DNA of 64,000 bases from Poseidonia sp. (GTDB lineage Archaea > Thermoplasmatota > Poseidoniia > Poseidoniales > Poseidoniaceae): contig JASLVM010000001.1 of NCBI GenBank assembly GCA_030741355.1, forward strand, positions 10,874 through 74,873. Direction: 5' to 3'. Positions 1,105 to 64,000 of this stretch are shown here, in pieces; position 1 is the stretch's first letter, and each line of letters starts with the position of its first letter. The notes beneath the pieces are model-generated. The model was given only the letters and a program-made list of their open reading frames with translations. It was not told the DNA's origin and did no database searches. A program made the translations under genes and the position numbers.

Positions 1105-1356
1105 ATGGTCAAGCCCGCACGCCAACACACCCGCTTTGAACGCGCTCGAATCATTGGTGCTCGTGCACTCCAAATCGGCATGGGCGCCCCACTTTACGCC
1201 GAAGAGAAAGTCTTGCGAGATGAGTTCAAAGAGGAACTCGTTTCTTTGTATGGACTTGAAGAAGCAAGCATTCGCTTCGTTCTCGACCCGTTGAAGATCG
1301 CACTCTACGAGTACGAGAACCACTTGATTCCTATCGACGTTGACCCTCACGAGTGA
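1105..1356 (+). CDS. rpoK: DNA-directed RNA polymerase subunit K (Rpo6)
   Basis: ORF 1099..1356 opens on TTG; first ATG at 1105. [22 protein letters not shown] matches the conserved Rpo6/RpoK core. Confidence 0.8.
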
Positions 1357-25747: not shown

Positions 25748-25904
25748 GGATTTCTCCCCGGTCCAACCGACCCCCCGGCAGGCTTTCAACTCATTGGAGC
25801 CATGTGAACCTCCGGAAAGTGTCGTCGAGTGAAAAAGAACAGTGAAATTCGGAGTTGGCGGGTGAAGTATTAAGAGGAGTTTGAGCGAAGTATTACTGAT
25901 TGAC

Positions 25905-45530: not shown

Positions 45531-45803
45531 TCAAGCGCTTGAACAACTGCGGTTCGCCCTTGTGGGGTGATCCGGGCATGATTTGCAAAATTTGTTTTTC
45601 CTTTCGTGCTTCCCGCAACAGGTTTCTTTCACTTTTTTCTTCGAACGCTCACAAGGTGTTGCGCACCCGGTTTGGCAGCGGTTTTCGGCAAGTTCAACCA
45701 CCGACTTTGAGGAGTTGAACACGTTGTCAATTTGCACACCACAGTAAGGACAGGCGACCCAGCCTGTTTGCATCATCATGTCGCAATTGTTGCACGTGTA
45801 CAT
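45531..45803 (-). CDS. Small Cys-rich protein (N-terminal zinc-ribbon CxxC...CxxC plus C-terminal Cys cluster)
   Basis: 90 aa with 13 Cys by hand count. YTCNNCDMMMQTGWVACPYCG, then CQTGCATPC and CCGKHERKNKFCKSCPDHP. Lies 32 nt downstream of the 891-aa membrane enzyme gene. Confidence 0.45.
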   Translation of the reverse strand: MYTCNNCDMMMQTGWVACPYCGVQIDNVFNSSKSVVELAENRCQTGCATPCERSKKKVKETCCGKHERKNKFCKSCPDHPTRANRSCSSA

Positions 45804-48511: not shown

Positions 48512-48544
48512 GTCGTTGCCCCCCTTCTAATTTTAGGGGAGACG

Positions 48545-48558
48545 AAATATCATATATG
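48545..48558 (+). promoter_or_regulatory. TATA-like element in the divergent region upstream of phnD
   Basis: aaatatcatatatg lies about 35-45 nt upstream of ATG 48591. An aaggggat SD-like site sits at 48578..48585. Confidence 0.3.
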
Positions 48559-48590: not shown

Positions 48591-49844
48591 ATGAACCGTC
48601 GATTAATTGCCATCATGTTGATGACCACCTTGCTTGCAGCCACCGTTCCGGGATGCTTATTTTCCTCGGACACCAATTATACCACATGCTCGGACGACGA
48701 CAACTGTCTCAAGATCGCTTTTGAAGTGAAGGAAGAGTACCAAAACACGGATGAAAACCCCCAAAAACTCGGTGACCGACTTGGCGAACTCATGGGTCAA
48801 GAGGTGGAGATTTACCCGGTCAACAGCCAGGCTGCCACCATTGAAGCCCTTCGATTTGGCAACGCTGACATCGGCTTCCTCGATGGCGGCGCTGCATGGT
48901 TGAGTTGGAACGAGTACGGGCTCGAAGTCGCAGCTGCAGAGCAAAAGGCTGACGGCCGTGCCTACTACCATGCGGTTGCCTGGGTCCACAAGGACTCCGA
49001 CATGGCGCAAGCCAGCATGAACGGCGACGTGGACCAAGCCCTCACGCTGATGGAAGGCAAAATCTCCTGCCACACCTCTGCCCTTGGAAGTTCAGGCATG
49101 TTGTTGCCCATGGGCTACCTCATCAACAACAGTTACATGGAAGTCGTTGGCGACAAGGACGAGATTGATTCCCTCCACGACACGGTGACCAACCACTTCT
49201 CAGAGGATTCGAGCATCCCCGACAGCGGCTCGCCATACTACCGCTACATCGGTTCACTGCGCTGCTTGGCCGAACACGCCCTTGGCGACGCCACCGATTA
49301 CATCTCCTTCGCGAAGGACCCCACCGTCCCCGATTATTGCGGCGACGACCCTCAAGACTGGTGCTTCGAGGGCGACTTCGCCTCCACCGAAGATTTCTAC
49401 CCCATCGGAGGCTACGACGCGGAAACCGGTGAAATCAACACCCCCTTCGGCAAAGCCCCCAGCCATCCCGTCATGTACAACCCCGATTTCTTCACGGCTG
49501 CGGAAGTGCAATCGCTTCGAGACGCTTTCACCACGATGAGCAGCAACGATGCTGACCTGGAGATCCTCGATGACGTGCTCAGCACGCCAGGCATGACCAT
49601 CATCGACACGGAATCCCACCTCGGGAGCTACGGTGACGCCATCGGAGACGTCCCCGGCATCAACGCCTACTTTGGTGATAAAATCAACAAGGTGAAGGTC
49701 ACCTCAAGCGACGACGGCCTGCCGCTTTACGTACCAATCCTCGTGGTCGGTGCCATCGGTGTGGCGGTCTATGTCATTCGAAACCGCAGCGAGGAAACCC
49801 AAACCGTTCCTTCCGAAACCACCACACCCTCTTCCGAGGAGTAA
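48591..49844 (+). CDS. phnD: Phosphonate/phosphite/phosphate-type ABC substrate-binding protein (PhnD family), lipobox-like N-terminus and C-terminal TM anchor
   Basis: LKIAFEV..., QAATIEALRFGNADIGFLDGGAAWL and YYHAVAWVHKDS (PhnD-like). VPGC near the N-terminus. C-terminal LPLYVPILVVGAIGVAVYVIRNR. Confidence 0.7.
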   Translation: MNRRLIAIMLMTTLLAATVPGCLFSSDTNYTTCSDDDNCLKIAFEVKEEYQNTDENPQKLGDRLGELMGQEVEIYPVNSQAATIEALRFGNADIGFLDGGAAWLSWNEYGLEVAAAEQKADGRAYYHAVAWVHKDSDMAQASMNGDVDQALTLMEGKISCHTSALGSSGMLLPMGYLINNSYMEVVGDKDEIDSLHDTVTNHFSEDSSIPDSGSPYYRYIGSLRCLAEHALGDATDYISFAKDPTVPDYCGDDPQDWCFEGDFASTEDFYPIGGYDAETGEINTPFGKAPSHPVMYNPDFFTAAEVQSLRDAFTTMSSNDADLEILDDVLSTPGMTIIDTESHLGSYGDAIGDVPGINAYFGDKINKVKVTSSDDGLPLYVPILVVGAIGVAVYVIRNRSEETQTVPSETTTPSSEE

Positions 49845-49850
49845 TCGTTG

Positions 49851-51065
49851 ATGGCGCGTTCGAACAGCCTCTGTTTGTTCTTGGTTGTCCTCTTGACCGC
49901 CGCTCCCCTTTCGGGTTGCCTCGGCGGAGATGAGGTGGAGCAGGACAGCGGTTTTGAGTGGGGCAATCGAAGCCAACCCGCCTGCGACCCGGTGGATTTG
50001 AACATCACCTGTAAAGAATATCTGAGCGGATTCACGACGCCCACCAATTCACTTCATCATCCCACCGAAGACGAAGTATGGTTCTCTGACCTTGACGGAC
50101 GTATCCTGGCGTACAACGGCCAAAGCACTCGCCTTGTTGGCAACATCAGCAACCTTGTTTCCAACTGCCACACGGAAGCAGGGCTGCTTGGTTTTGCGTT
50201 CGTATCCAACTTTGAAGAGAACCCACAGATTTTGTTCACCTACATCGGAACGGCCAACTGTGAAACCAAAGAAGTTACCAATTTGTTCTTGGCGGCCGGA
50301 GATGTGGTCAACGGTTCCCTGGATGAATCTTCAATTCACACGCTTCGGGAAATCGAACAAACTTACCGTAACCACAACGGCGGCCATCTCCTTGCCCTGG
50401 GGAATCACACCTATCTGTGGGGCGTGGGCGATGGTGGCGGCTCTAACGACCCGTTGGGCCACGGCCAAAACAACACCTCCTCCTTGGGTACCATCCAACA
50501 TTTCCACTACCTCAACGGCACCTTGATGCCACTGCACAACACCACGGGAACCGTCCAGGATTACACCCTTCATCGCGGGCTACGAAACCCATGGAAGTTT
50601 GATGTTGATGCCCAAGACAGATTGTGGATCGCTGACGTTGGTCAGAATTGTTTCGAAGAGATCAACCTCGTGCCCGTTCTCCAATCCAGCAATTTTGGTT
50701 GGGCCGACCGTGAAGCCAACCGCGAATTCAACGACCCGAGCGATTGCACGGCGCCACCGTCCACACCTCCGGAGGGAATGACGGATCCGGTGGTCGTCTA
50801 CACCCACGAGGAAGGCCGATGCTCAATCACCGGTGGCCTGTACATGGACTGGGGCCCAGAACCTTGGCAGGGCGGCTACATGTACGGGGATTTTTGCAGC
50901 GGAGATGTATGGATCACCAAAGATGCAGGCAACGGTGTCTGGGAAGGTGAACACCTCCTCGATACCGACAATCTGCTGGTTGGTTTCGGCCGTGGTTTGA
51001 ATGATGAATTGCTCTTGTTCACCTGGGGCGGCACGGTGTTTGAACTCGACATCTACACCCAGTGA
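49851..51065 (+). CDS. PQQ-dependent sugar (glucose/sorbosone) dehydrogenase-family beta-propeller, lipobox N-terminus
   Basis: HNGGHLLALG, GDGGGSNDPLGHGQN, GLRNPWKFDVD and DVGQNCFEEIN. LSGC lipobox. ORF opens on TTG 49848; ATG at 49851. Confidence 0.75.
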   Translation: MARSNSLCLFLVVLLTAAPLSGCLGGDEVEQDSGFEWGNRSQPACDPVDLNITCKEYLSGFTTPTNSLHHPTEDEVWFSDLDGRILAYNGQSTRLVGNISNLVSNCHTEAGLLGFAFVSNFEENPQILFTYIGTANCETKEVTNLFLAAGDVVNGSLDESSIHTLREIEQTYRNHNGGHLLALGNHTYLWGVGDGGGSNDPLGHGQNNTSSLGTIQHFHYLNGTLMPLHNTTGTVQDYTLHRGLRNPWKFDVDAQDRLWIADVGQNCFEEINLVPVLQSSNFGWADREANREFNDPSDCTAPPSTPPEGMTDPVVVYTHEEGRCSITGGLYMDWGPEPWQGGYMYGDFCSGDVWITKDAGNGVWEGEHLLDTDNLLVGFGRGLNDELLLFTWGGTVFELDIYTQ

Positions 51066-51077
51066 ACGACAACGAGT

Positions 51078-51467
51078 TTACTTGCCGATGCAAGCGAATA
51101 TCGCTGCACGAGCGTGAGGTTCCAACCGGGGCTCGATGTGTTTGGGTTTGGCACCGGGTCCGATGATGCCGAGACCGATCTTCTTGTTGTGCTTGAGTTG
51201 AAGTTCAAGGATGGTTTTGATGACCGCTTGACCCATGGCCAGGCCGTGTTGGGTTTCGCCCTTCTCAATGATGCCGAGACAAGCCGCAGCGTCGTGGTCG
51301 GCGAGCAATCGGTCAAGGGCCAACGGGACTTCCATTGAACCGGGGACCCACACCACTTCACCGATGGTCAAACCGTGTTGCTCCGCCTCATCCTTGGCGA
51401 AGTCGAGCATGCGAGAAACCTCTTCTCTGTGAAAGGAACCGCAGACCAAGCCAATTTGTTTGCTCAT
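51078..51467 (-). CDS. ribH: 6,7-dimethyl-8-ribityllumazine synthase
   Basis: VVWVPGSMEVPLAL and GIIEKGETQHGLAMGQAV resemble lumazine synthase motifs. 129 aa. The ATG overlaps the ribE stop (ATGA). Confidence 0.65.
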   Translation of the reverse strand: MSKQIGLVCGSFHREEVSRMLDFAKDEAEQHGLTIGEVVWVPGSMEVPLALDRLLADHDAAACLGIIEKGETQHGLAMGQAVIKTILELQLKHNKKIGLGIIGPGAKPKHIEPRLEPHARAAIFACIGK

Positions 51468-52081
51468 GGCCTCCCCTCCGGGTTCTCCTCTTTCATCATT
51501 CGTTCCACGGTCGCCACGATGGTTTGCGTCATGGAATCAATTTCAATGTTGATGGAATCCCCTGCCTCCACTTGTCCAAACGTGGTCAGGCGAAGTGTTT
51601 CGGGAATCAAATGGACATCAAAGCTGTCTTCATGCACCTGCCCGATGGTGAGTGAAGCACCGTTCAAACCGATGTAACCTTTCTCATGGATGAATTTCAT
51701 CATCGCTTTTGGCACCTCAATGGTCATGTTAACCCCTTCTCCAACTTCGGTTCGAACGGTGATCTCGCCCAAACCCATGATGTGGCCAGAAAGCAAGTGT
51801 CCGCCCAACTCATCACCCATTTTCAGCGAGCGCTCCACGTTGACTTCATCGCCCTCAGAGAGACGAGAAAGATTCGTTCGCTCGAGACTTTCTTGAATCA
51901 CATCAAAGGCCACCAGGTCACCGTCGATGTCCGTTGCCGTCAAACATACACCGTTGATGGCAACGCTGGCCCCTCGCTGAAGGCCTGCGGCCTCTGGGAG
52001 CGATATTTTGAAGGTCCATACGGGGCCATTTTTTTCTATAGAAAGAATGCTTCCTTTGCCTTGAACGATACCAGTAAACAT
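51464..52081 (-). CDS. ribE: Riboflavin synthase, bacterial/eukaryotic alpha-chain type
   Basis: MFTGIVQGKGSI start and an internal duplicated barrel (GASVAINGVCLT / GYIGLNGASLT). ATG at 52081 preceded by GGAGG. Confidence 0.85.
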   Translation of the reverse strand: MFTGIVQGKGSILSIEKNGPVWTFKISLPEAAGLQRGASVAINGVCLTATDIDGDLVAFDVIQESLERTNLSRLSEGDEVNVERSLKMGDELGGHLLSGHIMGLGEITVRTEVGEGVNMTIEVPKAMMKFIHEKGYIGLNGASLTIGQVHEDSFDVHLIPETLRLTTFGQVEAGDSINIEIDSMTQTIVATVERMMKEENPEGRP

Positions 52082-52083
52082 GT

Positions 52084-52524
52084 TCAAGCCTCCTTCTTTT
52101 CGGCGCGCTCAAGGATACGAGCGATGATTTTTCGGGTGCCGTCAAGGTCGTCGCTCAACCCTTCCACACGCACCACGTCGATACCTCCGTGGCCCCGCTC
52201 ATGAAGCGCCTTGCGGATGTTTTCCTCCGCATGCTCTTGGTCGTAGCCAAGGGCGATGACGTGGGGCTCAATGTCGGGGAGAATATCAAAAATTGGGACC
52301 TCCGGAGGATTTCCCACCACCACCGCGTCCACCGGCTTGAGACCTGCGACCATGCGTCGACGAAGGTCTTGATTGGTGACAGGCTCGTGCTTTCGCTTGC
52401 GAACGGTGTCGTCATGAGCCACGACGACCGTCAAATGATCGCCCAAAGCTTTGGCCTGCTCCAGATAGTGGAGATGACCTGCGTGGAGAAGGTCAAACAC
52501 GCCGACGGCAAGAATGCGCTTCAT
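52084..52524 (-). CDS. ribL: Archaeal FAD synthetase (FMN adenylyltransferase, cytidylyltransferase fold)
   Basis: ILAVGVFDLLHAGHLHYLEQAKALGDHLTVVVAHDDTVRKRK and LKPVDAVVVG match RibL. Start at ATG 52524 (the ORF extends to 52737). Confidence 0.75.
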   Translation of the reverse strand: MKRILAVGVFDLLHAGHLHYLEQAKALGDHLTVVVAHDDTVRKRKHEPVTNQDLRRRMVAGLKPVDAVVVGNPPEVPIFDILPDIEPHVIALGYDQEHAEENIRKALHERGHGGIDVVRVEGLSDDLDGTRKIIARILERAEKKEA

Positions 52525-52555
52525 AGGACCACCAATCACGGGTTGGGCTGTTGCT

Positions 52556-53284
52556 TCATGAGGATGACGGTGATGTTTCAACGCCGAGGGCGGCGACGAC
52601 GTCGGCGCCTTCAAGGAAAGGAATGTTCTTTGATTCGGCCCAAGAACGGGCATCCGCCACGGACAACGCATGGTCGCCATCGGGTTGGAGCATCTCTGCA
52701 CCGATGACAACAGGCGCCGCACCGGCAAGACGAGCAAGGCCCACCGCCAGTTCGGTGTGGCCTTGCCTGACGCTCAAGCCGCCTTTGGCCTCCCTGCAAA
52801 CAGGGATGTGGCCTGGCGTTCGGAATTCATCACCCAATCGTTTCATAGCCGGCTCACCTGCGACGCCATCAGCCAAACAAGTGGTCGCTAACTCAGCAAA
52901 ACGTCGTGTGGTCAGTGCACGGTCGTGGTCGGTGATACCGGTGTAGGTCTCGCGGTGATTGAGGGAGAGCGTAAAGGCCGAGCGAGCATCGTAGCGGAGG
53001 TCGTTCGTGATGAGGTGGTTCAGCACCGGACTTCGTTCAACAGCATCCGGCGTGGTGTGGAGGTCTTGAAGGAAAGGGAGCCCAAAACACTCTCCCACTT
53101 CGTCCCCAATGGCGAGGAACAACAAGCCACCGCAGTCTTGACGAAGTTGGCGCATGGTGGCTGGCTCAGCCATCGCCGCTGGGAAAAGGAGATCGGTTTC
53201 ACCTTCCCGCTTTTCCGAATCGAACAAACAAACGGGTTGCCCCTTTTGAAACGCATCGATGGCGCGTTGCACACGGGGCTCCAT
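52556..53284 (-). CDS. ribB: 3,4-dihydroxy-2-butanone 4-phosphate synthase
   Basis: FQKGQPVCLFDSEKREGETDLLFPA, FRTPGHIP and GHTELAVGLARLAG. Confidence 0.85.
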   Translation of the reverse strand: MEPRVQRAIDAFQKGQPVCLFDSEKREGETDLLFPAAMAEPATMRQLRQDCGGLLFLAIGDEVGECFGLPFLQDLHTTPDAVERSPVLNHLITNDLRYDARSAFTLSLNHRETYTGITDHDRALTTRRFAELATTCLADGVAGEPAMKRLGDEFRTPGHIPVCREAKGGLSVRQGHTELAVGLARLAGAAPVVIGAEMLQPDGDHALSVADARSWAESKNIPFLEGADVVAALGVETSPSSS

Positions 53285-54676: not shown

Positions 54677-54705
54677 CCAACGAAGGGGCGAAGTTGACGA
54701 TTGAT

Positions 54706-55704
54706 ATGGCGCACATCGCAGTGTTGGGATTGGGAAATTGGGGGACAGCCATCGCCCGTTTGTGGCTCTTGGAAGGCCACAAGGTCAAGGGCTGGACCAT
54801 TGAGCAGGAAGTCTACGAATCCATCACCATGAACGAAGTGAACGAGAAATACCTCCCGGACCACCCCGTCCCTGGATTGGATGTCACCATGCACCTCAGT
54901 GAGGCCATAGAGGGCAGTGAAATCATCGTCCTGGCCGTCCCTTCATCGGTCATTCTCGATGTCATGGAAGACGTGCTCCCTCACCTTCAGGCCGGCCATG
55001 TTCTGCTCGATTTGGCCAAAGGGTTGGCCCCCGGTAAACGGCTGATCTCCGAGGCCATCCACACACGACTCAAGGAAGAGGGAAAGACCAACCCCTTGGC
55101 GGTGTTGACTGGACCCACCATCGCCCCCGAAGCAGCAGGTGGGGTCATGACCACGGCCTTGGTGGCAAGCGAAGACCAAGCCATCGCCCAGCGCCTTGCT
55201 CAGACCTTGAGCACACCAAGTTTCATCCTCCATCCTGCCAGCGACCCGGTAGGGGCTGAACTTTGGGGGGCTTACAAGAACGTGGTCGCCCTTGCTTGCG
55301 GCCTTGTTGACGGCCTGAAGCAGGTTGGGGACTTGGGAGGAGACAACCTCAAAGCGGCGATTTTCATGTCTGGATTCAAAGAAGGATGCCTGTTGCTGGC
55401 GGAACTTGGAGCACGAGCAGAAGTGGCATTTGGACCGGCGGGCTTGGGCGACATGTACGTGACCGCCACATCACCTCACGGACGAAACAGGTCCATGGGG
55501 GAAAAACTCGGAACGGGTTTGACGTTGGACGACGCGTTGGATGAAATGCACATGGTTGCAGAAGGTGTTCGCGCCTGTCGCATGTTCGTCGAACGAGCAG
55601 AGGATGCGAACCTCAACATCCCCTTCACCAAAGCCCTGAACACGCTGTTGAACGGCGATATCGATGCAGAGGAATGCTGCAGAAGAATGGTTGCGCTCGG
55701 TTGA
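54706..55704 (+). CDS. gpsA: NAD(P)H-dependent sn-glycerol-3-phosphate dehydrogenase
   Basis: IAVLGLGNWGTAIARLW (Rossmann), GPTIAPEAA, KNVVALACGLVDG and MVAEGV are typical GpsA motifs. ORF opens on TTG 54694; ATG at 54706. Confidence 0.85.
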   Translation: MAHIAVLGLGNWGTAIARLWLLEGHKVKGWTIEQEVYESITMNEVNEKYLPDHPVPGLDVTMHLSEAIEGSEIIVLAVPSSVILDVMEDVLPHLQAGHVLLDLAKGLAPGKRLISEAIHTRLKEEGKTNPLAVLTGPTIAPEAAGGVMTTALVASEDQAIAQRLAQTLSTPSFILHPASDPVGAELWGAYKNVVALACGLVDGLKQVGDLGGDNLKAAIFMSGFKEGCLLLAELGARAEVAFGPAGLGDMYVTATSPHGRNRSMGEKLGTGLTLDDALDEMHMVAEGVRACRMFVERAEDANLNIPFTKALNTLLNGDIDAEECCRRMVALG

Positions 55705-55963: not shown

Positions 55964-56851
55964 TCACTTCAGTGAATCAGCCTGAGACTTCTCTTCGGTT
56001 TTCTTGAGGAGCAAGTTCATCCAAGTCGGCCTTCTCACGTCGCCCTGCTCGTTCACGAACGAACGGGCGAAGAGCGAAATCAAATCGATAATGATCACGA
56101 CCACGAAAATCAAGATCAACAAAGCGAAGACCTTCTCGTACTGAAAGAACTTGAGATAGTTGGTGATGTAGTAACCGATGCCACCCGCCCCAACGATGCC
56201 GATAACGGTCCCATGGCGGACATTATACTCGAACATGAAAATCAACTGGCTGAGAAGATGATTGCTGTTCTCTGGAATCACGATGTTGGTTGCGATGGCC
56301 CTGCTGGAGAGGCCCATGGCGCGACCGGCCTCGATAGGCCCGCTGTTCATCCCCTCGAAGGTTTCATACTGCAATTTACCGAGGTAACCAATGGTGTAGA
56401 AGCTCATGGCCAACACCCCGGAAAGAGGGCCAAGTCCGATGACGACGACAAAGAGAAGCGCCCAAATCAGACTTGGTAAACTCCTCACGGCTGCAAGGAG
56501 AATCCGAACGGGAATTGAAATCCAAACCGATTGGAGGTTGCGAGCGGCCAGCGGCGACAAGAGAATGGCCCCAAGGAAACCAAGGATGGTCGATACAAAG
56601 GCGATTTTCAAGGTCTCGACCATCCCAATGTACCCAATGGAGCAGGTGAATTCGAGGCGAGACTCGCACTCAGGATAGGTTCGTGGCTCAAGGACGCTCC
56701 AGTCGGGTGGCCACATGCTCTCGGTAAAGAAGACCACAAAATCACTCAATCCATCGCCGAATCGACCCCAATCCCCGCCAGCGAGGTCGCTCAGAAGCGC
56801 CAACGCCAGCAGACTCAAGGCCCCGATGATGACGAAGAGCCGGATTTTCAT
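55964..56851 (-). CDS. phnE: Phosphonate-type ABC transporter permease
   Basis: MVETLKIAFVSTILGFLGAILLSPLAARN plus BPD_transp_1-like helices. The ATG overlaps the phnC stop (ATGA). Confidence 0.75.
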   Translation of the reverse strand: MKIRLFVIIGALSLLALALLSDLAGGDWGRFGDGLSDFVVFFTESMWPPDWSVLEPRTYPECESRLEFTCSIGYIGMVETLKIAFVSTILGFLGAILLSPLAARNLQSVWISIPVRILLAAVRSLPSLIWALLFVVVIGLGPLSGVLAMSFYTIGYLGKLQYETFEGMNSGPIEAGRAMGLSSRAIATNIVIPENSNHLLSQLIFMFEYNVRHGTVIGIVGAGGIGYYITNYLKFFQYEKVFALLILIFVVVIIIDLISLFARSFVNEQGDVRRPTWMNLLLKKTEEKSQADSLK

Positions 56852-57564
56852 TCCGTTTCACCTTCCATCCGGCGTTTTTTCCACGCCTCAACAGTTAGAT
56901 CAGAAAAACGTCCATCGTTGAGTTCCCAAACACGCGTGGCGTACTTGAGTGCGTGTTCCTCATGGTGCTCAACCATGATGAGGCTGCAGCCTTTTGCGAG
57001 GAGAGGAAACACGGCCTCCATCACGCCCGTGGCGTTGATGTCGTCCAGTTCGCTGAGGAATTCATCGGCAAGGATGAGTTGGGGGCGCTGCGCCAGGGTC
57101 CGAGCTGTCGCCACACGCCGTTTTTGTCCACCGGAGAGCCGACGCACCGGTTCGGATGCTTTGTGGTCCATGCCAACCGCAGAAAGGGCTTTCATCACTC
57201 GCTCGCGACGCTCAGCATACATTCCAAACGACCATTTCATTCGCACACCGGCTCCAAGAGCGACGTTGTGAGCCACCGTTGCATGGCGAACAAGACCGAG
57301 GTTTTGCGGGATGTATCCCAGACCACCGGCCGGTTCCACGTGAAGTTCCGAACGCCCTCCCAACGGCATAACCAAATTTGCAACGGTGCGCAGCAGGGTG
57401 GTTTTCCCAATCCCAGAGGGGCCGAGGATGACCACGATTTCCCCCGGACCAACCGTGAGACTGATCGGGTCAGAAAGCGGCTCATCATACCCGATAACGA
57501 GGTCGGAAAGGGAGAGGAGTTCAGTTTTCAAGGGACCCTCTCCACCCCGAACGAAAGGGAACAC
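56848..57564 (-). CDS. phnC: Phosphonate-type ABC transporter ATP-binding protein
   Basis: Walker A GPSGIGKTTLL, signature LSGGQKRRVATA, Walker B LILADEFLSELD. GTG start. The phn assignment rests on coupling to phnE. Confidence 0.7.
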   Translation of the reverse strand: MFPFVRGGEGPLKTELLSLSDLVIGYDEPLSDPISLTVGPGEIVVILGPSGIGKTTLLRTVANLVMPLGGRSELHVEPAGGLGYIPQNLGLVRHATVAHNVALGAGVRMKWSFGMYAERRERVMKALSAVGMDHKASEPVRRLSGGQKRRVATARTLAQRPQLILADEFLSELDDINATGVMEAVFPLLAKGCSLIMVEHHEEHALKYATRVWELNDGRFSDLTVEAWKKRRMEGETE

Positions 57565-57570
57565 CTTTTC

Positions 57571-57592
57571 AAGTTTAGTCTTCCCTAAACTT
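57571..57592. other. Perfect 8-bp-stem/6-nt-loop hairpin in the 39-nt spacer between two minus-strand operons
   Basis: The sequence is aagtttag-tcttcc-ctaaactt. It lies between the HugZ-like gene stop (57604) and the phnC start (57564). Confidence 0.4.
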
Positions 57593-57603: not shown

Positions 57604-58434
57604 TCAGGATGCGAGTTTCTTTCTGGCTTCTTTGACCATGCGAACAAGTTCAATCCGGGCTTCATCTGGCGTTTCTACTTCATGGGAAAAGGCGATTCTG
57701 ATTGGGTGTACGCCATCGGTTTGCGTTGCATCCATCTCAAAACCATAGCGATCAATACCGGTCATTACGGCAGATTGCACGTTTTGGGCATCGCTCATGG
57801 TTTCGCAGTACAGCACCATGGCATCCTCATGATCTTCGTTCATGTGCGTGATGATTTCGTGTGCGTGCTCAGACAAGGGGTCGGGCTCTGCCGTTATCCA
57901 GTCATCGTGTTCAAACCAAGACATTTTGCCGAAGCCACCGATGTAACGGACAGCAGAGACTTCCAACCCGAAGAAGAAAAAATCGCGGAAGTCGACATAG
58001 GCTACCGCTGATGGATGGTGGCGAAGGTAGGTCTCTCTCGCTGCCCCAACCTCTTCCTCATCCAGTTTCCGGCAGGCTCCAACAAGCGTCACACGAGCCG
58101 ATGCGAGTGGGTTTTCCGCTGAATTTTCCGAAATCAGAAGCGAAGCTTTTGGATTCTTCATCAGATTCTTGGTGTGCTCTGCCAATCCGCTGATCAGAAA
58201 AATAGGCTGGCCTTCGTGCATCGCATAGGTCACAAAGGAGCCATAGGGGTGGCCGTCGTGTTGTTTTGAGATGCTGCACAACGTCGCTGTGACATGTTGC
58301 TGGGCGAGCGTTCTTGCCTCTTCGGCATGCGATGAACGCCGAGTTTCGGGGTCGTAAAGTCGCTTTTGTGGCTTCATTTTGCTTCCATCGGCCATGGTGT
58401 GGCCGCTGTTTTTTGGTTGTTCTTTTATGCTCAT
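57604..58434 (-). CDS. HugZ/ChuZ-like haem-utilisation protein (PNPOx-like split barrel + DUF2470)
   Basis: ATLCSISKQHDGHPYGSFVTYAMHEGQPIFLISGLAEHTKNL (split-barrel) and C-terminal ITHMNEDHEDAMVLYC (DUF2470 HMNxDHxDA motif). AGGAGAT upstream. Confidence 0.7.
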   Translation of the reverse strand: MSIKEQPKNSGHTMADGSKMKPQKRLYDPETRRSSHAEEARTLAQQHVTATLCSISKQHDGHPYGSFVTYAMHEGQPIFLISGLAEHTKNLMKNPKASLLISENSAENPLASARVTLVGACRKLDEEEVGAARETYLRHHPSAVAYVDFRDFFFFGLEVSAVRYIGGFGKMSWFEHDDWITAEPDPLSEHAHEIITHMNEDHEDAMVLYCETMSDAQNVQSAVMTGIDRYGFEMDATQTDGVHPIRIAFSHEVETPDEARIELVRMVKEARKKLAS

Positions 58435-58451
58435 TTTTTCATCTCCTGAAT

Positions 58452-58901
58452 TTATTCAATCGTTTTCATTTCCTTGATTGAAGATTCCGTCCAATAGGCA
58501 GCGTCGTCTTCGTAATCGGTATCACAATCCATTCGTTCAATCAAGCGATTTGCACCTTTCTCGTTCAGAACCGCATCCCATTCCCTGCCTGATTCACAGA
58601 AGAGGTCGAAGGCAGTATCCCCAAGGGCGAGAACACCGTAATTGAGGCCTGACAAGACGCCTTCTGCACAATCTGAAACCGCATCAAACAATTCCTGAGC
58701 ATTGTCTGGTTGTTCGCCATCACCCCACGTACTGCAAAAAATGAGCAACCTCCGAACGTTGCAAAGTTCATCAACATCGATTTGATCCATGCCTCGAACA
58801 TCCGCCTCGAACCCCTGCTCATTGGCATGTTTGCCAGCATCCATGGCCAATAATTCTGCGTTCCCGGTCTCCGTTCCATATAATATCGTCAATTTTTTCA
58901 T
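58452..58901 (-). CDS. Flavodoxin
   Basis: MKKLTILYGTETGNAE FMN-phosphate loop, STWGDGEQPDN, LALGDTAFDLFC. 149 aa. AGGTGAT upstream. Confidence 0.8.
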   Translation of the reverse strand: MKKLTILYGTETGNAELLAMDAGKHANEQGFEADVRGMDQIDVDELCNVRRLLIFCSTWGDGEQPDNAQELFDAVSDCAEGVLSGLNYGVLALGDTAFDLFCESGREWDAVLNEKGANRLIERMDCDTDYEDDAAYWTESSIKEMKTIE

Positions 58902-58912
58902 TCTTCATCACC

Positions 58913-59701
58913 TTAGTCGTTTTTCAGTGCAGCCTGAATGGTAATTCGAAGCGACCCCGAGTCTTCTCGAACCTCGGCTTCAACGCCGAACACTTCGGCA
59001 ATCAGTTCAACGGTCAGGACCTCCTTTGGTGGCCCATAAGCTCTAATTTTTCCATCGTGAAGCAACATAATTTTGTCAGAGAACCGTGCTGCAACATCGA
59101 TATCATGAATGGCGATAATCGCAGAGGAGGGCGCCGTCCGGTCGCCAACCACACTGCGAATTTTTTCCATGGTGGTGATTTGATGCTTGAGGTCGAGATC
59201 GCTCGTCGGTTCATCCAGCAGATACAACTTCGGTTCCTGAGCGAGCGCTTTTGCGAGAACCACACGCTGTCGTTCTCCACCAGAGAGTTGGTCGTACCTG
59301 CGAAAGGCGAAATCATGGATGCCAAGGAAATGTAAACACTCACTCACTTTGTCTCTGTCGCCGTCTCCAACAAACCACTGGAGATGAGGGCGACGACCAA
59401 GCAGAACAACGTCAAAGACATTCATCGGAAAGTTGGTGCCCACGCTTTGAGGAACATAGGCGACTTGCCTCGCCACATCCATGATGGTCATGCCCAATAC
59501 ATCGCTTGAGAGCAAATGAATGGAGCCTGAAGAGGGCGATAAAATCCGGTTAATGCACTTCAACAGGGTTGTTTTCCCCGCCCCATTCACACCGAGCACC
59601 GAGACGAGTTGATTTGGCCCAACATCAAAGTTGAGATCTTCCAATACGGTTCGCCCAGGCCAAGAAAAGGACAAATCGTGAACGGCCAGAAAGTCACTCA
59701 T
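58913..59701 (-). CDS. Iron-chelate/haem-type ABC transporter ATP-binding protein (FepC/HmuV class)
   Basis: GVNGAGKTTLL, LSGGERQRVVLAKAL and LYLLDEPTSDLD. ATG 59701 overlaps the permease stop (ATGA). The ORF extension to 59845 is not used. Confidence 0.85.
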   Translation of the reverse strand: MSDFLAVHDLSFSWPGRTVLEDLNFDVGPNQLVSVLGVNGAGKTTLLKCINRILSPSSGSIHLLSSDVLGMTIMDVARQVAYVPQSVGTNFPMNVFDVVLLGRRPHLQWFVGDGDRDKVSECLHFLGIHDFAFRRYDQLSGGERQRVVLAKALAQEPKLYLLDEPTSDLDLKHQITTMEKIRSVVGDRTAPSSAIIAIHDIDVAARFSDKIMLLHDGKIRAYGPPKEVLTVELIAEVFGVEAEVREDSGSLRITIQAALKND

Positions 59702-60741
59702 CGTTGAACCCCCTTTGATTGAAGCAGGAGATACATGAAGACCGGACCTCCGATCACCGCCAACATGATGCCAACAGGAATCACGATGGGGGCGAAAAGG
59801 GTGCGGCCAATGGTATCTGCGAACACCATCAAAAAAGCTCCACAAACCGCAGAAGCAGGGAGAAGTTTTCGATAGTCGTTCCCGATGATGAGGCGACTCA
59901 TGTGAGGGGCGGCAAGACCCACGAAACCAATCATGCCGGTGAAGGCGATGATCAAGGACGTCATCAGGGCTGAAAGGACGAGGATGTTTCGCCGGATGCG
60001 CATAGGATTCACACCTGTGGAAATGGCAAAATCATCGCCCCCCATGGCCAGAGCGTTGAGATCCCAAGACCACATCATGGCTTGGGGCAGTAAGGCCACA
60101 ATGCAGATGCCTACGGCGAGAACCACCGCCATGTCGGGACGTGAAAGACTCCCAAATGACCAGTGGGCAAGTTGAGACAATTGGGCATCTGTGGCAAAGA
60201 ACTGGAGCGTTGAAACGACTGCTCCTGCGATGAACGTGATGGCGATACCAACCAAAATGTATGATTCTGCACTGATGGAACGGTATCGCCCCAATTGGAT
60301 GATGATAAAGACCACGAGAAGAGAGAAGATAAACGCATTTCCTGCAATGGCAAAAGCCCCAATGCTGGTGATACTAAAACCCACAACAATGGCCAAAGCT
60401 GCACCAAGAGCAGCGCCTGAAGCAACGCCCAAGGTGAGTGGGGAAACCAATGGATTTCCAAGGCAGCCTTGCATGAGCGCCCCTGCGGTGGCTAAGCCAA
60501 CACCACCGACAATGGCCATCAACACACGAGGGAGTCGTAACTCCCAAATGATGGCGGACTGGACGCTGGTGGCGTCGTCGAGGCCCAACACGATTCGTGC
60601 CGTGGTGATGACATCAAGTTGGCTTGATGAGCCTTGACCAAGAGCCACTAAGCTGACAAAGGCGGTCAGCATGCACATGAGGCCAATCTTCACCAGTTGA
60701 GAATGGCCACGTTCTTGATGTTGAAGAGAGAGAGAGTTCAC
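59698..60741 (-). CDS. FecCD-family ABC permease
   Basis: RLPRVLMAIVGGVGLATAGALMQ and GMIGFVGLAAPHMSRL are FecCD motifs. Probable GTG start at 60741 behind GGTGAGG (alternative ATG at 60789 or 60837). Confidence 0.85.
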   Translation of the reverse strand: MNSLSLQHQERGHSQLVKIGLMCMLTAFVSLVALGQGSSSQLDVITTARIVLGLDDATSVQSAIIWELRLPRVLMAIVGGVGLATAGALMQGCLGNPLVSPLTLGVASGAALGAALAIVVGFSITSIGAFAIAGNAFIFSLLVVFIIIQLGRYRSISAESYILVGIAITFIAGAVVSTLQFFATDAQLSQLAHWSFGSLSRPDMAVVLAVGICIVALLPQAMMWSWDLNALAMGGDDFAISTGVNPMRIRRNILVLSALMTSLIIAFTGMIGFVGLAAPHMSRLIIGNDYRKLLPASAVCGAFLMVFADTIGRTLFAPIVIPVGIMLAVIGGPVFMYLLLQSKGVQR

Positions 60742-60745
60742 CGCC

Positions 60746-61837
60746 TCACCCCTGTGATGAACAAGAGAATGTCCCTGTTCGTTCGACATCGAAAAATTCT
60801 GAATAAAAGGTGTCCAAGTAGGATGTCGCATCGACATCTTCGAAGGTCGATGGGTGAAGGTGTTTGGCGAGTGTAGGCAAACCGTAAACCATCATTGGAC
60901 CTGCAAACTCACCTGAAAGAATCAACATTCGGTCTTCATCAACTGCCTGCATCCCATCAAATCCGGGACGATCACGAATGGATTGCATGTGCGTTCCACA
61001 TTTGTTTTCAGAATCGTACCGATCAAAGCCCAGGTCGAAAGTGATGCCATCGAACATCAACACCTCTGGGTCGGCATCGATGATGGCCTCCATGTCCACG
61101 TGGGTGGTGTGTCCGGGCAAATCGGCAAACACATTGACTCCACCTGCCATTTGGATAAGGTCTGTCCATTGAGAGGTGCCTGTCAAGACGACCGGGTCTC
61201 GGGTCAATGAAGCATGATGTTCCATGACCACTTCAGGTCGTTCGTCGCTGGAAACGGTGCTTATGCGGGCCTCAACCATGGCCTCAATGGTGTCAAAGTT
61301 CTCATAGAGAGCATCAGCGGCATCCCTCCGGTCAAACACATCGGCTAACACACCAATCTCATACCGAAGGGAATCGTATTTGTAGAAATCAAGCGCAAGA
61401 ACGTGGATGCCGACGGGCGTGAGTTTGTGGCGAATCGCTTCGGTATCCACCATTCCATTGGTGGCAAAAACGATGTAAACATCGGGGCGGGTGTCCAAGA
61501 GTGCTTCAAAATCGATTTCAGAGTGTGCTGAATTTTGAATCATCGTCGTCGAGGTAAATTCCGGCCAAAGGTCGCTGTTGTCAAAATCGCCAGAAACACC
61601 CACGACAACAGCAGGATCGACACCGAGCATTTTCATCACGGTCGCAGCATAAGTATTCGTTAATGCGACCCGTTGAGGTGCTTCATCAAAGGTAAAAGTG
61701 ACACCGTTAGAATCGACCACGCTCTTCTCGCCCTCTGCCTCGATGAGCAGGTCGGATTGAGCAAAATCGTAGAGTTTCCAACTTGCCAAGAGAATAAACG
61801 ACACCTGCAAGAGAGCGACAAAGTTTTGTCTGTTCAT
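60746..61837 (-). CDS. Peripla_BP_2-type substrate-binding protein (haem/siderophore/cobalamin class), N-terminal TM anchor
   Basis: N-terminal VALLQVSFILLASW. RVALTNTYAATVMKMLGVD and PDVYIVFAT are typical of class III binding proteins. The ATG overlaps the upstream stop (ATGA). Confidence 0.7.
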   Translation of the reverse strand: MNRQNFVALLQVSFILLASWKLYDFAQSDLLIEAEGEKSVVDSNGVTFTFDEAPQRVALTNTYAATVMKMLGVDPAVVVGVSGDFDNSDLWPEFTSTTMIQNSAHSEIDFEALLDTRPDVYIVFATNGMVDTEAIRHKLTPVGIHVLALDFYKYDSLRYEIGVLADVFDRRDAADALYENFDTIEAMVEARISTVSSDERPEVVMEHHASLTRDPVVLTGTSQWTDLIQMAGGVNVFADLPGHTTHVDMEAIIDADPEVLMFDGITFDLGFDRYDSENKCGTHMQSIRDRPGFDGMQAVDEDRMLILSGEFAGPMMVYGLPTLAKHLHPSTFEDVDATSYLDTFYSEFFDVERTGTFSCSSQG

Positions 61838-64000
61838 CGCCCATTCCTCCTGATCTCCATGAACAAAGTTGCAGAAAACACGATGAAAATCATGGACAGA
61901 AATGACAGACTTGGCATCGCACCTTCAGAACCGGACGAGGATGATTCCTCGACCGTGACAAAGATGGAGGCAGACGGCTCAGAGGAAACCTCGTCCATGG
62001 TAGCAACCAGTCTGAAACGATGAAGACCCGATTCAAGATTTCCAACTTCCACAAAAGTAGAGGCCCCGTTGTAAACCTCGACAACATCGCCATCCGGCGT
62101 CTGCATCGTGACCAAATACGATTCGGCCTCGAACGGGTAGTCCCATGAAAGGAGAGCTGTCTCGCCTGAAGCAATGAACGATGCAGAAGCGGTCAAAACC
62201 GGCGTGGGTGGAAGGAATGCAACCTCAACGTCGAGCGTCGAACCAAGGAGCAAATAGTCAAGCGGCATGATGGCGTTGACCTGGTAGCGATAGATTCCAT
62301 CATCTCGGTTGCGAAGTTCGACCTCGGTCTCAACGCCTCGATAGACCTCGACGCCGTTTTCCAGCAGTTGATAGGCCTCAGCGCCAACGAATTCCGACCA
62401 TTGAATCTCGAAGGACTTCTCGGTTTGGACGGTGGTTTCGGTCAAGAATTCCGGGGTCTGAGGTGTGTTGAAAGCGGTCAACTCATGAATCACCATATCG
62501 GAATGTGACCCAGGGAGCCTGTCGATGATTTTGACATAGTTTTGGACTGTATCGTTGTACCAGAGCTCCCATGAAAGCACACCGTCCTCGTCGTCCTGAA
62601 TCGCAATGTACGTGCAATTGAACACACCTGCTGCCGTGGTGATGGCGACGTTGTGCTCTATCGATACCGAATTCAAGGTATCATCGTAGCCGTTGGGATG
62701 CCCCGGGACGCCGATGATGTTGGTTCGGTTGAAATGAAGGTGCGAGGGCGGTACATCACCGTACAGGCCCACCTCATTTTCCCCATCCGTCAACATCCAT
62801 CCCAGAGAACCTTCTTGGAAATAGCTGGAAGATGACGGGGCGTCAACCCAGTAGGTTTTCACCGGAAGATAGGTTTGAGTGTCAACCCAGCGGAACGCCT
62901 GCTCGCCCTCTTCGTACTGATCGTCCATGATTCGCAGCAAATAGGTTGAGCGAACCCTGCCAAAGGCGTCGGTGATGTCTTCCGTTCCGATGGCGGTGAG
63001 GGTTCGGTTTGAACGGTATTCAGGTGTATGGACCAAACTGTAATCCCAGGACATCCCAGAGGTCCAAGAGCCGTCAACGGATTCGGTGGGTAAGAACAAC
63101 ACCAACAGAGATGGAGCCGAAGGGTTACTTCCATTGGTGTTGTAAGACACCAAATAGAATTCAGAGGTGCCAGCGGAAGTTGCAATGTATTCAAAAGAGG
63201 TTGATGAGCCTCGATAGATTAAACCATTCTGGCTGATTTCTCCAACAAAGAGTTCCACGAAATCGGTGTGGGCACCGATGGTCCAAGCGATCTCAATTGG
63301 ACCCAGCGGCACGGACATCGCAGATTCGAGGAAGGTAGCGTTGCGCGGCAATTCCAAGGTCACGGAGGTCGTGTGGTTCAGCCAGTTTGCTCCGTGGTCG
63401 ACAAGCGTCGAAAGGTTCGAGGCGATCTCTTGTCCTGATTGCCTGAAGGTCAAATCGACTTCATCGCCTAGTTGCAGACCGTTGAGAAGGTAGAAGCCAT
63501 CGGCATTGGTCGTCGCTTGGGCACTTCCACTGGAGACCTCAACGTCCCGTGCTGGCGAACCGGCCGCATCCGAAAGGAACCCGAACACACTGTTTGTTCC
63601 CTCCTTGAATTGAAGGTGGTTCACGCGAGGGGTCGTGGCGGAACCCGGTTCCAAGCGCAAGCACATGACGAGTTGCTCGGAGGCAGACCCGCTCAGAGAG
63701 GTGGAGACGGTGTGATAATCTCCGGTGAGATAGGGTCCAAACTCCGCTCGCCCGTCGTTGAACACTTGGCTTTCGTTGCGTTCAAGCAACGAGACCGAAA
63801 CCGATTCACTTTGGTCAAGGAGGTCACCGTTTGCGTCCAGGGCATCGATTGTGATCCAATTATGACCTTCGTACCAGTCCAGGGTCGTATCGCCGTCGAT
63901 GAAAATGGTCCGGTAAGCCACCGTGTGCCCGTCGTTCATGAAGTAGGCCCTTACGGTGTGCTCGCCGGGCGTGATTCCCGGGAAGCTGTAAGTTCCATCG
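61834..64000 (-). CDS. Large beta-rich surface protein, C-terminally anchored; 5' end lies beyond the window
   Basis: The frame stays open upstream of the listed Met to nt 64000 (...GTYSFPGITPGEHTVRAYFMNDG). It has carboxypeptidase-regulatory-like GxYxF..L.PG.Y segments and FN3-like modules (EIQWSEFVGAEAYQL, LLSWDYPFEAESYLV). C-terminus SSSSGSEGAMPSLSFLSMIFIVFSATLFMEIRRNGR. Confidence 0.6.
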   Translation of the reverse strand, partial: DGTYSFPGITPGEHTVRAYFMNDGHTVAYRTIFIDGDTTLDWYEGHNWITIDALDANGDLLDQSESVSVSLLERNESQVFNDGRAEFGPYLTGDYHTVSTSLSGSASEQLVMCLRLEPGSATTPRVNHLQFKEGTNSVFGFLSDAAGSPARDVEVSSGSAQATTNADGFYLLNGLQLGDEVDLTFRQSGQEIASNLSTLVDHGANWLNHTTSVTLELPRNATFLESAMSVPLGPIEIAWTIGAHTDFVELFVGEISQNGLIYRGSSTSFEYIATSAGTSEFYLVSYNTNGSNPSAPSLLVLFLPTESVDGSWTSGMSWDYSLVHTPEYRSNRTLTAIGTEDITDAFGRVRSTYLLRIMDDQYEEGEQAFRWVDTQTYLPVKTYWVDAPSSSSYFQEGSLGWMLTDGENEVGLYGDVPPSHLHFNRTNIIGVPGHPNGYDDTLNSVSIEHNVAITTAAGVFNCTYIAIQDDEDGVLSWELWYNDTVQNYVKIIDRLPGSHSDMVIHELTAFNTPQTPEFLTETTVQTEKSFEIQWSEFVGAEAYQLLENGVEVYRGVETEVELRNRDDGIYRYQVNAIMPLDYLLLGSTLDVEVAFLPPTPVLTASASFIASGETALLSWDYPFEAESYLVTMQTPDGDVVEVYNGASTFVEVGNLESGLHRFRLVATMDEVSSEPSASIFVTVEESSSSGSEGAMPSLSFLSMIFIVFSATLFMEIRRNGR

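Follow-up and report, generated by a model that had tools for sequence, protein, structure and literature searches.

A candidate haem acquisition pathway within an iron-starvation island of Poseidoniales archaea

Described haem uptake systems and the Poseidonia locus

ABC importers of haem that are combined with a haem-degrading enzyme and placed under an iron-dependent repressor are, as a general kind, already known. Here we describe six minus-strand genes in a stretch of 64,000 nt from contig JASLVM010000001.1 of Poseidonia sp. (hereafter the window, to whose positions all coordinates refer unless another locus is named), which encode a large surface protein labelled SURF, a binding protein, a FecCD permease, an ABC ATPase, a flavodoxin and a split-barrel protein of the HOZ family. 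To judge from gene content, conserved order and comparison with related loci (labelled with L-numbers), these genes probably form a haem acquisition pathway within an iron-starvation island of Poseidoniales.

The Isd, Hta and Shr systems of Gram-positive bacteria serve cells that have no outer membrane; in them haem passes from an anchored receptor to a class III binding protein, likewise anchored, and on through a FecCD/ATPase importer to a degrading enzyme in the cytoplasm, under the control of an iron-dependent repressor, and the window resembles them in this plan. A preliminary description of this DNA had likened the arrangement to Isd/Hta systems and the parallel in relay logic stands, but no defining Isd feature was found, as the window has neither a NEAT or HtaA domain nor a sortase signal, its surface protein is held by a C-terminal transmembrane anchor, and HOZ stands in place of IsdG/I or HmuO.

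In prokaryotes HOZ-like genes have been observed to neighbour FecCD, BPD-type and transferrin-like transport genes, and haem uptake or utilisation clusters have been proposed on that basis (Grosjean et al. 2024, J Biol Chem, PMC11602992). The window shares with those neighbourhoods a split barrel followed by a DRI domain beside the same three sorts of transport genes, whereas it differs in being archaeal (the main text of PMC11602992 contains neither "archaea" nor "flavodoxin") and in adding a surface protein peculiar to the lineage and a flavodoxin as an accessory member, along with Fea1-like genes and TroR-type boxes. A further set of relatives, which serve the anaerobic use of haem, are the chuW-chuX and hutW-hutX-hutZ operons and the hmuW-hmuF operon of Fusobacterium, whose HmuF is a precedent for a flavodoxin within a haem operon (PMC10404700), and whose ChuW/HutW and HutX reappear in a methanogen counterpart of our locus described below; the window differs from these operons as it has HOZ and neither ChuW nor HutX, and its predicted uptake runs through an archaeal SURF and binding protein instead of a TonB-dependent receptor. 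The fourth comparison is the ferric-catecholate importer YiuABC of Yersinia, which provides the solved structure closest to the binding protein, with the same class III fold of cluster A-II, but which has an Arg triad where the archaeal protein has Tyr, Tyr and His; the archaeal loci lack a TonB receptor and have HOZ or ChuW genes attached.

What is new against this background is the archaeal setting, the lineage-restricted receptor family, the pairing of one import module with aerobic and anaerobic partners, the occurrence of TroR-type boxes in Thermoplasmatota, and the coupling to a transferrin-based importer. Our literature search found no report on haem uptake in archaea or in Marine Group II (MGII), in agreement with the preliminary description, which knew of no characterised archaeal system.

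The six-gene core and its anaerobic counterpart

All six open reading frames proposed earlier are present in the open reading frame list (Table 1), Pfam bears out the families suggested for the binding protein, permease, ATPase, flavodoxin and split-barrel/DUF2470 protein, and direct reading confirms the ATGA stop/start overlaps at 61834-61837 and 59698-59701 as well as the short spacers with their GGTGAGG, AGGTGAT and AGGAGAT Shine-Dalgarno-like sites. The archaeal host was also correctly named: homologues of the split-barrel gene come from Candidatus Poseidoniales, Poseidoniaceae, Thalassarchaeaceae or "Euryarchaeota archaeon", and the flanking synteny, which takes in a bacterial-type GpsA, an AP endonuclease and riboflavin genes, matches long Tara contigs of Poseidoniales, so that the names and the shared synteny together place the window in an MGII archaeon. 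The exact sequence of the window HOZ protein gave no record on look-up.

Loci for comparison were drawn from three sources, namely the contigs of HOZ homologues, one genome per GTDB species and, as a reverse check, the contigs of binding-protein homologues; the window proteins were mapped onto all of them by BLASTP and 18 Poseidoniales lineages were counted, the window included. SURF, binding protein, FecCD, ATPase, (flavodoxin) and HOZ follow one another on one strand in 15 of the 18, with HOZ identity down to 52%, and this result is recovered from either starting point, HOZ or the binding protein, whilst two lineages are cut on their 5' side and are consistent with the common order. Conservation of the six-gene order, which the preliminary description had left for relatives to decide, is thus borne out by co-linearity in 15 lineages. 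In 15/18 lineages the gene immediately preceding HOZ is the importer ATPase or its flavodoxin, PhnC/PhnE-like genes lie downstream of HOZ in 13/18, and the locus occurs in MGIIa as well as MGIIb. None of the island neighbours is shared by the nearest HOZ homologues from bacteria (up to 53% identical), and in one MGII clade (L004) a SOUL haem-binding protein (134 bits) is encoded downstream of HOZ. The arrangement of the six genes is more than chance. Two of the compared contigs carry bacterial labels, NZEQ01000021.1 (L010, labelled Verrucomicrobiales bacterium ARS100) and L017 (labelled Anaerolineales UBA832), yet have a Poseidoniales island at 80-99% and 57% protein identity respectively, with archaeal synteny; they are probably archaeal contigs mis-binned into bacterial metagenome-assembled genomes.

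It is the divergent relatives of the module that speak most directly to its cargo. ChuW and HutX serve enteric bacteria in anaerobic haem degradation and as a haem carrier, respectively. A 438-aa relative of SURF (28% identity over 420 aa, E 7e-42) is encoded by the cultured methanogen Methanomassiliicoccus luminyensis; it shares the central domain, the two FN3-like domains and the C-terminal anchor, and its gene heads an operon that continues with a binding protein, FecCD, the radical-SAM protein ChuW/HutW (TIGR04107, 490 bits, above the cut-off of 400), an ATPase and HutX (TIGR04108, 154 bits, above the cut-off of 110). The binding protein of this operon is 40% identical to that of the window (E 1e-92) and keeps the motifs NTY, SAHxExD, EHH(A/S)S...PVV...TSQW and GEFAGPMM, with a second binding protein in the same locus being just 22% identical; four perfect TroR-type boxes are present, two of them, at 7930-7980 of the locus, just upstream of the ChuW operon, with a DtxR-family gene alongside. 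The locus (L093) also has a second boxed FecCD operon from 14530. An uncultured lineage (L096) similarly combines a SURF-like gene, a binding protein (42% identity), FecCD and a ChuW-like gene (43% identity). As predicted from these gene sets, the same capture and import module is joined to an O2-independent haem route in anaerobes and to the O2-dependent HOZ in the aerobic Poseidoniales. Such displacement of HOZ by ChuW/HutX around an orthologous module is what would be expected if the cargo is haem, and a siderophore or vitamin B12 as cargo would hardly account for it. The proposal of a haem capture, import and degradation pathway thereby gains strong comparative support from the ChuW/HutW- and HutX-linked modules, but the part of it that saw a complete unit in six genes does not hold, as the unit is not limited to them.

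The candidate degrading enzyme was first described as having exactly the layout of HugZ, which it does not. Its split barrel (Pfam CREG_beta-barrel 9.7e-28 and PNPOx_N 4e-13, residues 33-180) precedes DUF2470 (2.8e-21, residues 193-266), the order opposite to that in HugZ, and the HugZ equivalog TIGR04109 reaches only 76.5 bits against a cut-off of 240, with the C-terminal residues 194-273 aligning to profile positions 2-78. Matches to HugZ and ChuZ are weak and permuted (HOZ 51-173 to HugZ 3gas 100-229, HOZ 193-249 to ChuZ 3swj 5-58). Searches of the PDB instead return full-length similarity to characterised members of another family, MSMEG_6519 (7.3e-46, residues 32-271), AtHOZ1 (7e-38), PA4388 (3.4e-35) and PtHOZ1 (1.7e-34), which all have the barrel first and DRI/DUF2470 last; the distinction between HOZ (split barrel with C-terminal DRI) and HugZ was defined by Grosjean et al. 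(PMC11602992). By its sequence the window protein is of HOZ type, not HugZ. The same authors describe a propionate-contacting His in the barrel and a His pair in the DRI site (PMC11602992), and H87 (LAEHTKNL) aligns with the His of AtHOZ1 AVHTKDL and H197/H202 (HMNEDH) with AtHOZ1 HMNKDH; none of the three varies among 42 sequences, and they would appear to correspond in numbering to the published residues. MSMEG_6519 and AtHOZ1, the closest solved relatives, bind or degrade haem (PMC11602992, PMC11014987), and the DRI domain is a haem-binding module (PMC11014987). With these relatives and the conserved His residues, kinship to haem-degrading proteins thus holds where the HugZ layout does not.

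The flavodoxin is of the kind that would suit such an enzyme, as its nearest solved relatives (Pfam Flavodoxin_1 2.7e-27) are the flavin mononucleotide (FMN) domains of CysJ, NOS and cytochrome P450 reductase (E 3e-17 to 1e-14), and cytochrome P450 reductase is the physiological electron donor to haem oxygenase-1; a role as electron donor to HOZ is plausible. It was first described as dedicated but is not a fixed member, since it is next to HOZ in 12/18 lineages, lies elsewhere in one, and is lacking in the clusters of the other five; it is an accessory member of the cluster.

SURF is truncated in the window. Its frame is open up to base 64000, the ATG at 63939 being merely the first in the open reading frame list, and orthologues have 766-816 aa, full length being typically ~786 aa. 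Between a signal peptide and a C-terminal transmembrane anchor its layout has four beta-sandwich domains, a central beta domain specific to the lineage and a pair of FN3-like domains, and the AlphaFold model of P0121, a protein 92% identical to SURF, has a predicted local distance difference test (pLDDT) score of 79. Pfam gives weak CarboxypepD_reg matches only, and a profile search against PDB sequences found no relative. A Foldseek search of the PDB with the whole model returned generic immunoglobulin/FN3 chains at a TM-score of ~0.1 and was uninformative for identity. The central domain has no Pfam match even at E 10 and matches just 32 clusters among 1.84 billion representatives. The earlier statement that the receptor is unrelated to those of NEAT or HtaA type was correct, with no NEAT domain or other receptor family found in Pfam, NCBIfam and PDB sequence searches. 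Just past the window end, the spacer between the Fea1-domain gene and SURF in relatives contains a conserved pair of GC-rich hairpins, CTGCTT(A/C)GGCAG and GGTTGGCCAGC...GCTGGCCAATC, which may act in attenuation or processing and so set how strongly Fea1 is expressed relative to SURF.

Table 1. Positions of the core genes, of neighbouring genes and boxes, and of selected features in compared loci (window positions unless a locus or contig is given)
Feature	Position	Strand	Remarks
SURF surface protein	61834..64000	-	3' 721 codons; ~65 N-terminal codons beyond window
SURF C-terminal transmembrane anchor	61843-61902	-	
SURF central domain	62449..63081	-	211 aa, all-beta; proposed ligand-capture domain
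Binding protein, class III, membrane-anchored (Peripla_BP_2)	60746..61837	-	start overlaps SURF stop (ATGA)
FecCD permease	59698..60741	-	GTG start at 60741; 347 aa
Type II importer ABC ATPase	58913..59701	-	start overlaps permease stop (ATGA)
Short-chain flavodoxin, diflavin-reductase FMN-domain type	58452..58901	-	proposed electron donor
HOZ-family protein, cytoplasmic	57604..58434	-	split barrel then DRI/DUF2470; proposed O2-dependent haem-degrading enzyme
TroR-type operator-like palindrome TTTAGGGAAGACTAAA	57574..57589	.	between HOZ and PhnC-like genes; one mismatch to TTTAGG-N4-CCTAAA
PhnC-like ABC ATPase	56848..57564	-	ABC_tran 1.6e-26; start ~40 nt past HOZ stop
PhnE-family permease	55964..56851	-	TIGR01097 218.5 bits, above cut-off 216.7; BPD_transp_1 3.7e-16
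GSDH-family beta-propeller gene, pyrroloquinoline quinone-type glucose/sorbosone dehydrogenase-like	49848..51065	+	Pfam GSDH 9.8e-19; co-transcribed with transferrin-like gene
Single-lobe transferrin homologue	48591..49844	+	lipobox-like N-terminus, C-terminal transmembrane anchor
TroR-type box variant TTTAGGGGAGACGAAA, then TATCATATAT	48532..48547	.	44 nt upstream of transferrin-like gene
Two tandem box variants TTTAGGG-N3-ACGAAA	45825-45859	-	directly upstream of Cys-rich gene; overlap 3' end of phosphodiesterase-like gene
90-aa Cys-rich gene, N-terminal zinc ribbon	45531-45803	-	Pfam Zn_ribbon_3 2.5e-5
Hairpin pair in Fea1-SURF spacer	L001 ~4130-4215; L010 ~1-129; L011 ~760-850		
M. luminyensis locus L093	CAJE01000014.1, 6937-14189		DtxR-family gene, two perfect TroR-type boxes, candidate haem-uptake operon

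The surrounding iron island and its TroR-type boxes

A hairpin at 57571-57592 had been put forward as the closing element of the six genes, and the 8-bp inverted repeat AAGTTTAG/CTAAACTT does exist there, but it is AT-rich without a T tract, it was not called by the terminator scan and it lies outside the minimum-free-energy fold (z -0.47), so that the terminator reading was rejected; the PhnC/PhnE-like genes continue on the same strand. The best NCBIfam match of the PhnC-like ATPase is ABC_phnC (127.6 bits, below cut-off). The protein that these genes may serve is encoded at 48591-49844 and matches both Phosphonate-bd and Transferrin in Pfam (Transferrin 44.7 bits against a cut-off of 20.3). 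Against the PDB it finds lactoferrin and transferrin lobes at 3e-15 and PtxB and PhnD at 0.019, it fails the PhnD cut-offs (TIGR03431 44.3 vs 261.1, TIGR01098 61.9 vs 112.05), and its sequence retains the iron ligands Asp, Tyr, Tyr and His together with the carbonate Thr, the conserved ligand motifs being FLDGG, YYHAVAW, SCHT, YYRYIGSLRCL and APSHPV. In the MGIIb lineage L007 the transferrin-like gene heads a run that continues with flavodoxin, HOZ, PhnC and PhnE, and in relatives a Fea1-domain gene (96 bits; the family of FEA1 and the diatom phytotransferrin ISIP2a) lies upstream of SURF. With PhnC/PhnE, the transferrin homologue and Fea1 as neighbours, the six genes thus form the core of a larger island for iron acquisition, which has two ABC importers and in which the PhnC/PhnE-like genes, as far as family and position indicate, probably serve the transferrin homologue as an Fe(III) importer.

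The "transport of phosphonates" has been given as a core trait of MGII (Tully 2019, PMC6336850). As the binding protein scores below the cut-offs for PhnD and its gene lies behind TroR-type boxes, this trait is probably the present PhnC/PhnE pair, which serves a transferrin-like Fe(III)-binding protein; our literature search found no report of an MGII transferrin. It has been proposed that transferrins originated among phosphonate-binding proteins (as stated in PMC7676907, citing McQuaid 2018). In keeping with this, the window protein resembles transferrin in the four iron ligands of transferrin lobes and resembles PhnCDE transporters in its pairing with PhnC/PhnE-type genes, with the Fea1-domain gene of relatives as a link to the phytotransferrins (ISIP2a, FEA1), whereas it differs from these in being a membrane-anchored single lobe with an ABC importer in place of endocytosis and in scoring below the PhnD cut-offs. 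Bilobal homologues of ~700 aa with ligand motifs intact in both lobes occur in three Poseidoniales lineages (L013 1484-3331, L018 14619-16778, L019 18388-20520), a form that resembles eukaryotic transferrins. The GSDH-family gene adjoins the transferrin-like gene also in at least L001, L010, L011, L015, L091 and L092.

The genes of the island are further connected by a palindrome of 16 bp, TTTAGG-N4-CCTAAA, that turns up repeatedly and mostly has a TATA-like run behind it; it precedes the genes for Fea1, SURF, the transferrin-like protein, the PhnC-like ATPase and ZIP. It equals the semi-palindromic motif obtained by chromatin immunoprecipitation sequencing for TroR, a DtxR-family iron repressor of Haloferax volcanii (TTTAGGC-NNN-CCTAAAANAN; bioRxiv 10.1101/2023.08.16.553580), and as in the TroR regulon the boxes lie in promoters of iron-uptake genes and are often paired. 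At no more than one mismatch there are 22 boxes in 238 kb of archaeal loci as against 3 in 1143 kb of bacterial loci, and the window has 4 at no more than two mismatches where 0.84 would be expected; in three loci fetched later and held out, 10 of 10 boxes fell within promoters of the island, including one that separates HOZ from PhnC in L091. The supposed terminator hairpin is itself such an operator-like box (57574-57589), a box at the equivalent position is also present in L010, L007 and L091, and the transferrin-like orthologues in L007, L018, L019, L091 and L092 likewise have upstream boxes. The likeness to H. volcanii extends to the DtxR-family gene that adjoins the cluster in three related loci (L015, L093, L097), whereas tblastn found no DtxR gene in the window, whose predicted boxes each carry one or two mismatches. 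That the island is repressed in an iron-dependent manner through TroR-type boxes can be inferred on good grounds from this distribution. An exact palindrome, GTTTAG-N(4-8)-CTAAAC, was also considered as a repeated element and set aside, as it is found only in the window and its closest relative L010, the relaxed TroR-type pattern being the informative one. The small Cys-rich zinc-ribbon gene behind the tandem box variants may belong to the same iron regulon. In L021 (5887-8247) a perfect TroR-type box lies directly upstream of the start of a 782-aa protein in which an M28-like peptidase domain is fused to a ZIP-family metal permease.

In the window and in relatives the two halves of the island are separated by genes for riboflavin and flavin adenine dinucleotide (51464-53284, minus strand), namely DHBP synthase, a CTP_transf_like RibL-type gene and riboflavin synthase, to which relatives add DMRL synthase; their position within the island could be coincidence or could be tied to the FMN demand of the flavodoxin. 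The bacterial-type NAD(P)-dependent glycerol-3-phosphate dehydrogenase GpsA (54694-55704, plus strand) adjoins the island in most lineages, and such an enzyme in an archaeon fits earlier reports on MGII lipid genes. Elsewhere in the window are a tryptophan 2,3-dioxygenase gene (1347-2450, minus strand, 5.3e-62), whose product is haem-dependent, so that the organism uses haem proteins, and a 1368-aa open reading frame (25881-29987, plus strand) with no Pfam match whatever. No tRNA and no Rfam matches were found in the window.

Cargo, alternative readings and significance

If the pathway operates as its families suggest, iron scarcity would cause a DtxR/TroR-type repressor to leave its TTTAGG-N4-CCTAAA boxes and the island would be transcribed. 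SURF, a predicted type I membrane protein, would hold its ~210-aa beta domain away from the cell on the beta-sandwich and FN3-like domains, capture haem or a haem-bearing ligand and hand it to the membrane-anchored class III binding protein, the gene of which is translationally coupled to that of SURF. The binding protein would dock on a type II importer made of the FecCD permease and the ATPase, and cytoplasmic HOZ would bind the haem, open its ring with O2 and free the iron, with electrons supplied by the co-encoded flavodoxin where it is present. In parallel, the PhnC/PhnE-like genes behind their TroR-type box would form with the transferrin homologue a separate importer of Fe(III). We also propose, as a tentative extension that we regard as possible but short of probable, that the SURF central beta domain is a new class of Thermoplasmatota-confined cell-surface receptor for haem or haemoproteins, which would define the first archaeal haem-acquisition system in two versions, one aerobic with HOZ and in some cases flavodoxin (Poseidoniales), the other anaerobic with ChuW and HutX (Methanomassiliicoccales), both under a TroR-type iron repressor.

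The families of the importer are firmly assigned and its cargo less so. The binding protein belongs to class III (cluster A-II), with a Peripla_BP_2 match of 4.9e-23 (82.2 bits, cut-off 27.5) and a model (pLDDT 82) in which residues 3-31 form an N-terminal helix and two lobes are joined by a long helix (171-192), and Foldseek gives it 180 PDB matches at E<=1e-3, the best 50 of the 180 all being periplasmic or solute-binding proteins of class III. FecCD (4.6e-79, 266 bits; orthologues of 344-348 aa) and ABC_tran (2.5e-31, 110 bits) domains in coupled genes identify a type II ABC importer. Models of individual cargoes were tried on both and rejected as a guide, as the permease matches BtuC (191 bits) and FhuB best and the ATPase scores 218-238 bits with corrinoid, F420-0 and haem models, the archaeal corrinoid ABC ATPase being the best at 238 bits, all of them below cut-off and with haem, B12 and siderophores not separated.

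That failure is one of several points that weigh against haem as the cargo. The solved structures nearest to the binding protein are those of YiuA (TM-score 0.73-0.80, 22% identity, E ~1e-20), including its complex with Fe and a catecholate fragment (DHB-Arg-Ser), whilst the haem binder PhuT appears at rank 29 with a TM-score of 0.59; the IsdE model scores 33.3 bits against a cut-off of 298.65 and is matched alongside FhuD-like and EitA models of NCBIfam, and BhuT is matched at E 1e-3. SURF is unlike any known haem receptor and its promoter lies outside the window. L007 splits the cluster, its flavodoxin and HOZ lying within the transferrin-like operon and the FecCD unit on the other strand, which runs GSDH, ATPase, FecCD, binding protein, SURF and Fea1. 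The flavodoxin, missing from five lineages, could simply be an iron-sparing substitute for ferredoxin, given that the gene is accessory and that L015 has a different type nearby, and the HOZ family includes non-enzymatic haem sensors (PMC11602992). The YiuA structures, the FhuD-like and EitA matches, the arrangement in L007 and the distribution of the flavodoxin would suit an importer of a non-haem iron chelate, be it a siderophore, a fragment of one or another organic Fe(III) complex, with HOZ and flavodoxin being merely co-regulated iron-stress genes, HOZ recycling the haem of the cell itself, much as plant HOZ proteins act on endogenous haem (PMC11602992), and the flavodoxin replacing ferredoxin. 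It would nevertheless seem unlikely that this is the case. Chelate binding by YiuA is defined by the triad Arg64/Arg165/Arg223 (PMC5683015), which the binding protein lacks, the corresponding positions, placed by sequence alignment only, being Y63, Y152 and H208; among orthologues position 63 is Tyr in 32 and Phe in 4, position 152 is Tyr in 35 and Phe in 1, and H208 is present in 36/36. The cleft loops contain invariant His, Met and acidic residues; H105, E206, H207, H208 and M315 are kept even in ChuW-linked orthologues, and the invariant H105, H207, H208 and M315 are candidate haem ligands. Furthermore, the modules of SURF and binding protein occur in ChuW/HutW operons of two lineages, with HutX as well in M. 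luminyensis, and these enzymes have no siderophore role; the SOUL protein of the L004 clade and the position of HOZ directly after the importer ATPase or its flavodoxin also argue against a chelate.

Haem might on the other hand be imported chiefly as a cofactor by lineages unable to make it, with HOZ as a chaperone, buffer or detoxifier. Gaps in haem biosynthesis are predicted for MG-IIb and MG-III subclades (bioRxiv 10.1101/2021.01.11.426183), the split-barrel relatives HutZ, HupZ and GluTRBP bind haem with little or no turnover, and the DRI domain would fit such a function, but the cluster is part of an iron island that also has transferrin-like genes, Fea1-like genes and TroR-type boxes, its anaerobic counterpart has a degrading enzyme in ChuW, and the locus occurs in MGIIa and MGIIb regardless of predicted auxotrophy, which together make cofactor supply as the main purpose distinctly improbable. 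Least credible of all is a BtuFCD importer of corrinoids, in which the flavodoxin would reduce cobalamin and the split-barrel protein handle the corrinoid. The best permease and ATPase matches to BtuC and the archaeal corrinoid model would favour it, and flavodoxin is a known cobalamin reductant in bacteria, yet these scores are far below the cut-offs (334-537 bits), the haem and siderophore ATPase models score nearly as well, the match of BtuF to the binding protein is weak (E 0.009), the neighbours are iron genes under TroR-type boxes, and the orthologous modules accompany ChuW and HutX, so that we give this reading very little chance.

Marine Group II archaea are uncultured and among the most abundant and transcriptionally active members of the surface-ocean plankton, and to our knowledge their iron acquisition is essentially undescribed. 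If a haem acquisition pathway is indeed encoded by the island, it would be the first haem-acquisition system described in archaea; on the tentative extension given above, haem would be a major source of iron in Marine Group II and a source of cofactor in haem-auxotrophic subclades, and the system would stand beside a transferrin-based Fe(III) ABC importer hitherto read as "phosphonate transport". The latter, with its transferrin homologue and PhnC/PhnE, would illustrate in living organisms how a phosphonate-binding protein may, as has been proposed, have given rise to transferrin. Conserved haem uptake in MGII would bring a further large consumer into the marine cycling of haem and iron, and it would bear on the haem auxotrophy predicted for some subclades of MGII and MGIII and hence on the culturing of these organisms. 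Finally, as the counterpart in M. luminyensis belongs to a cultured organism, the receptor, the binding protein and the TroR-type control would be open to direct testing there.

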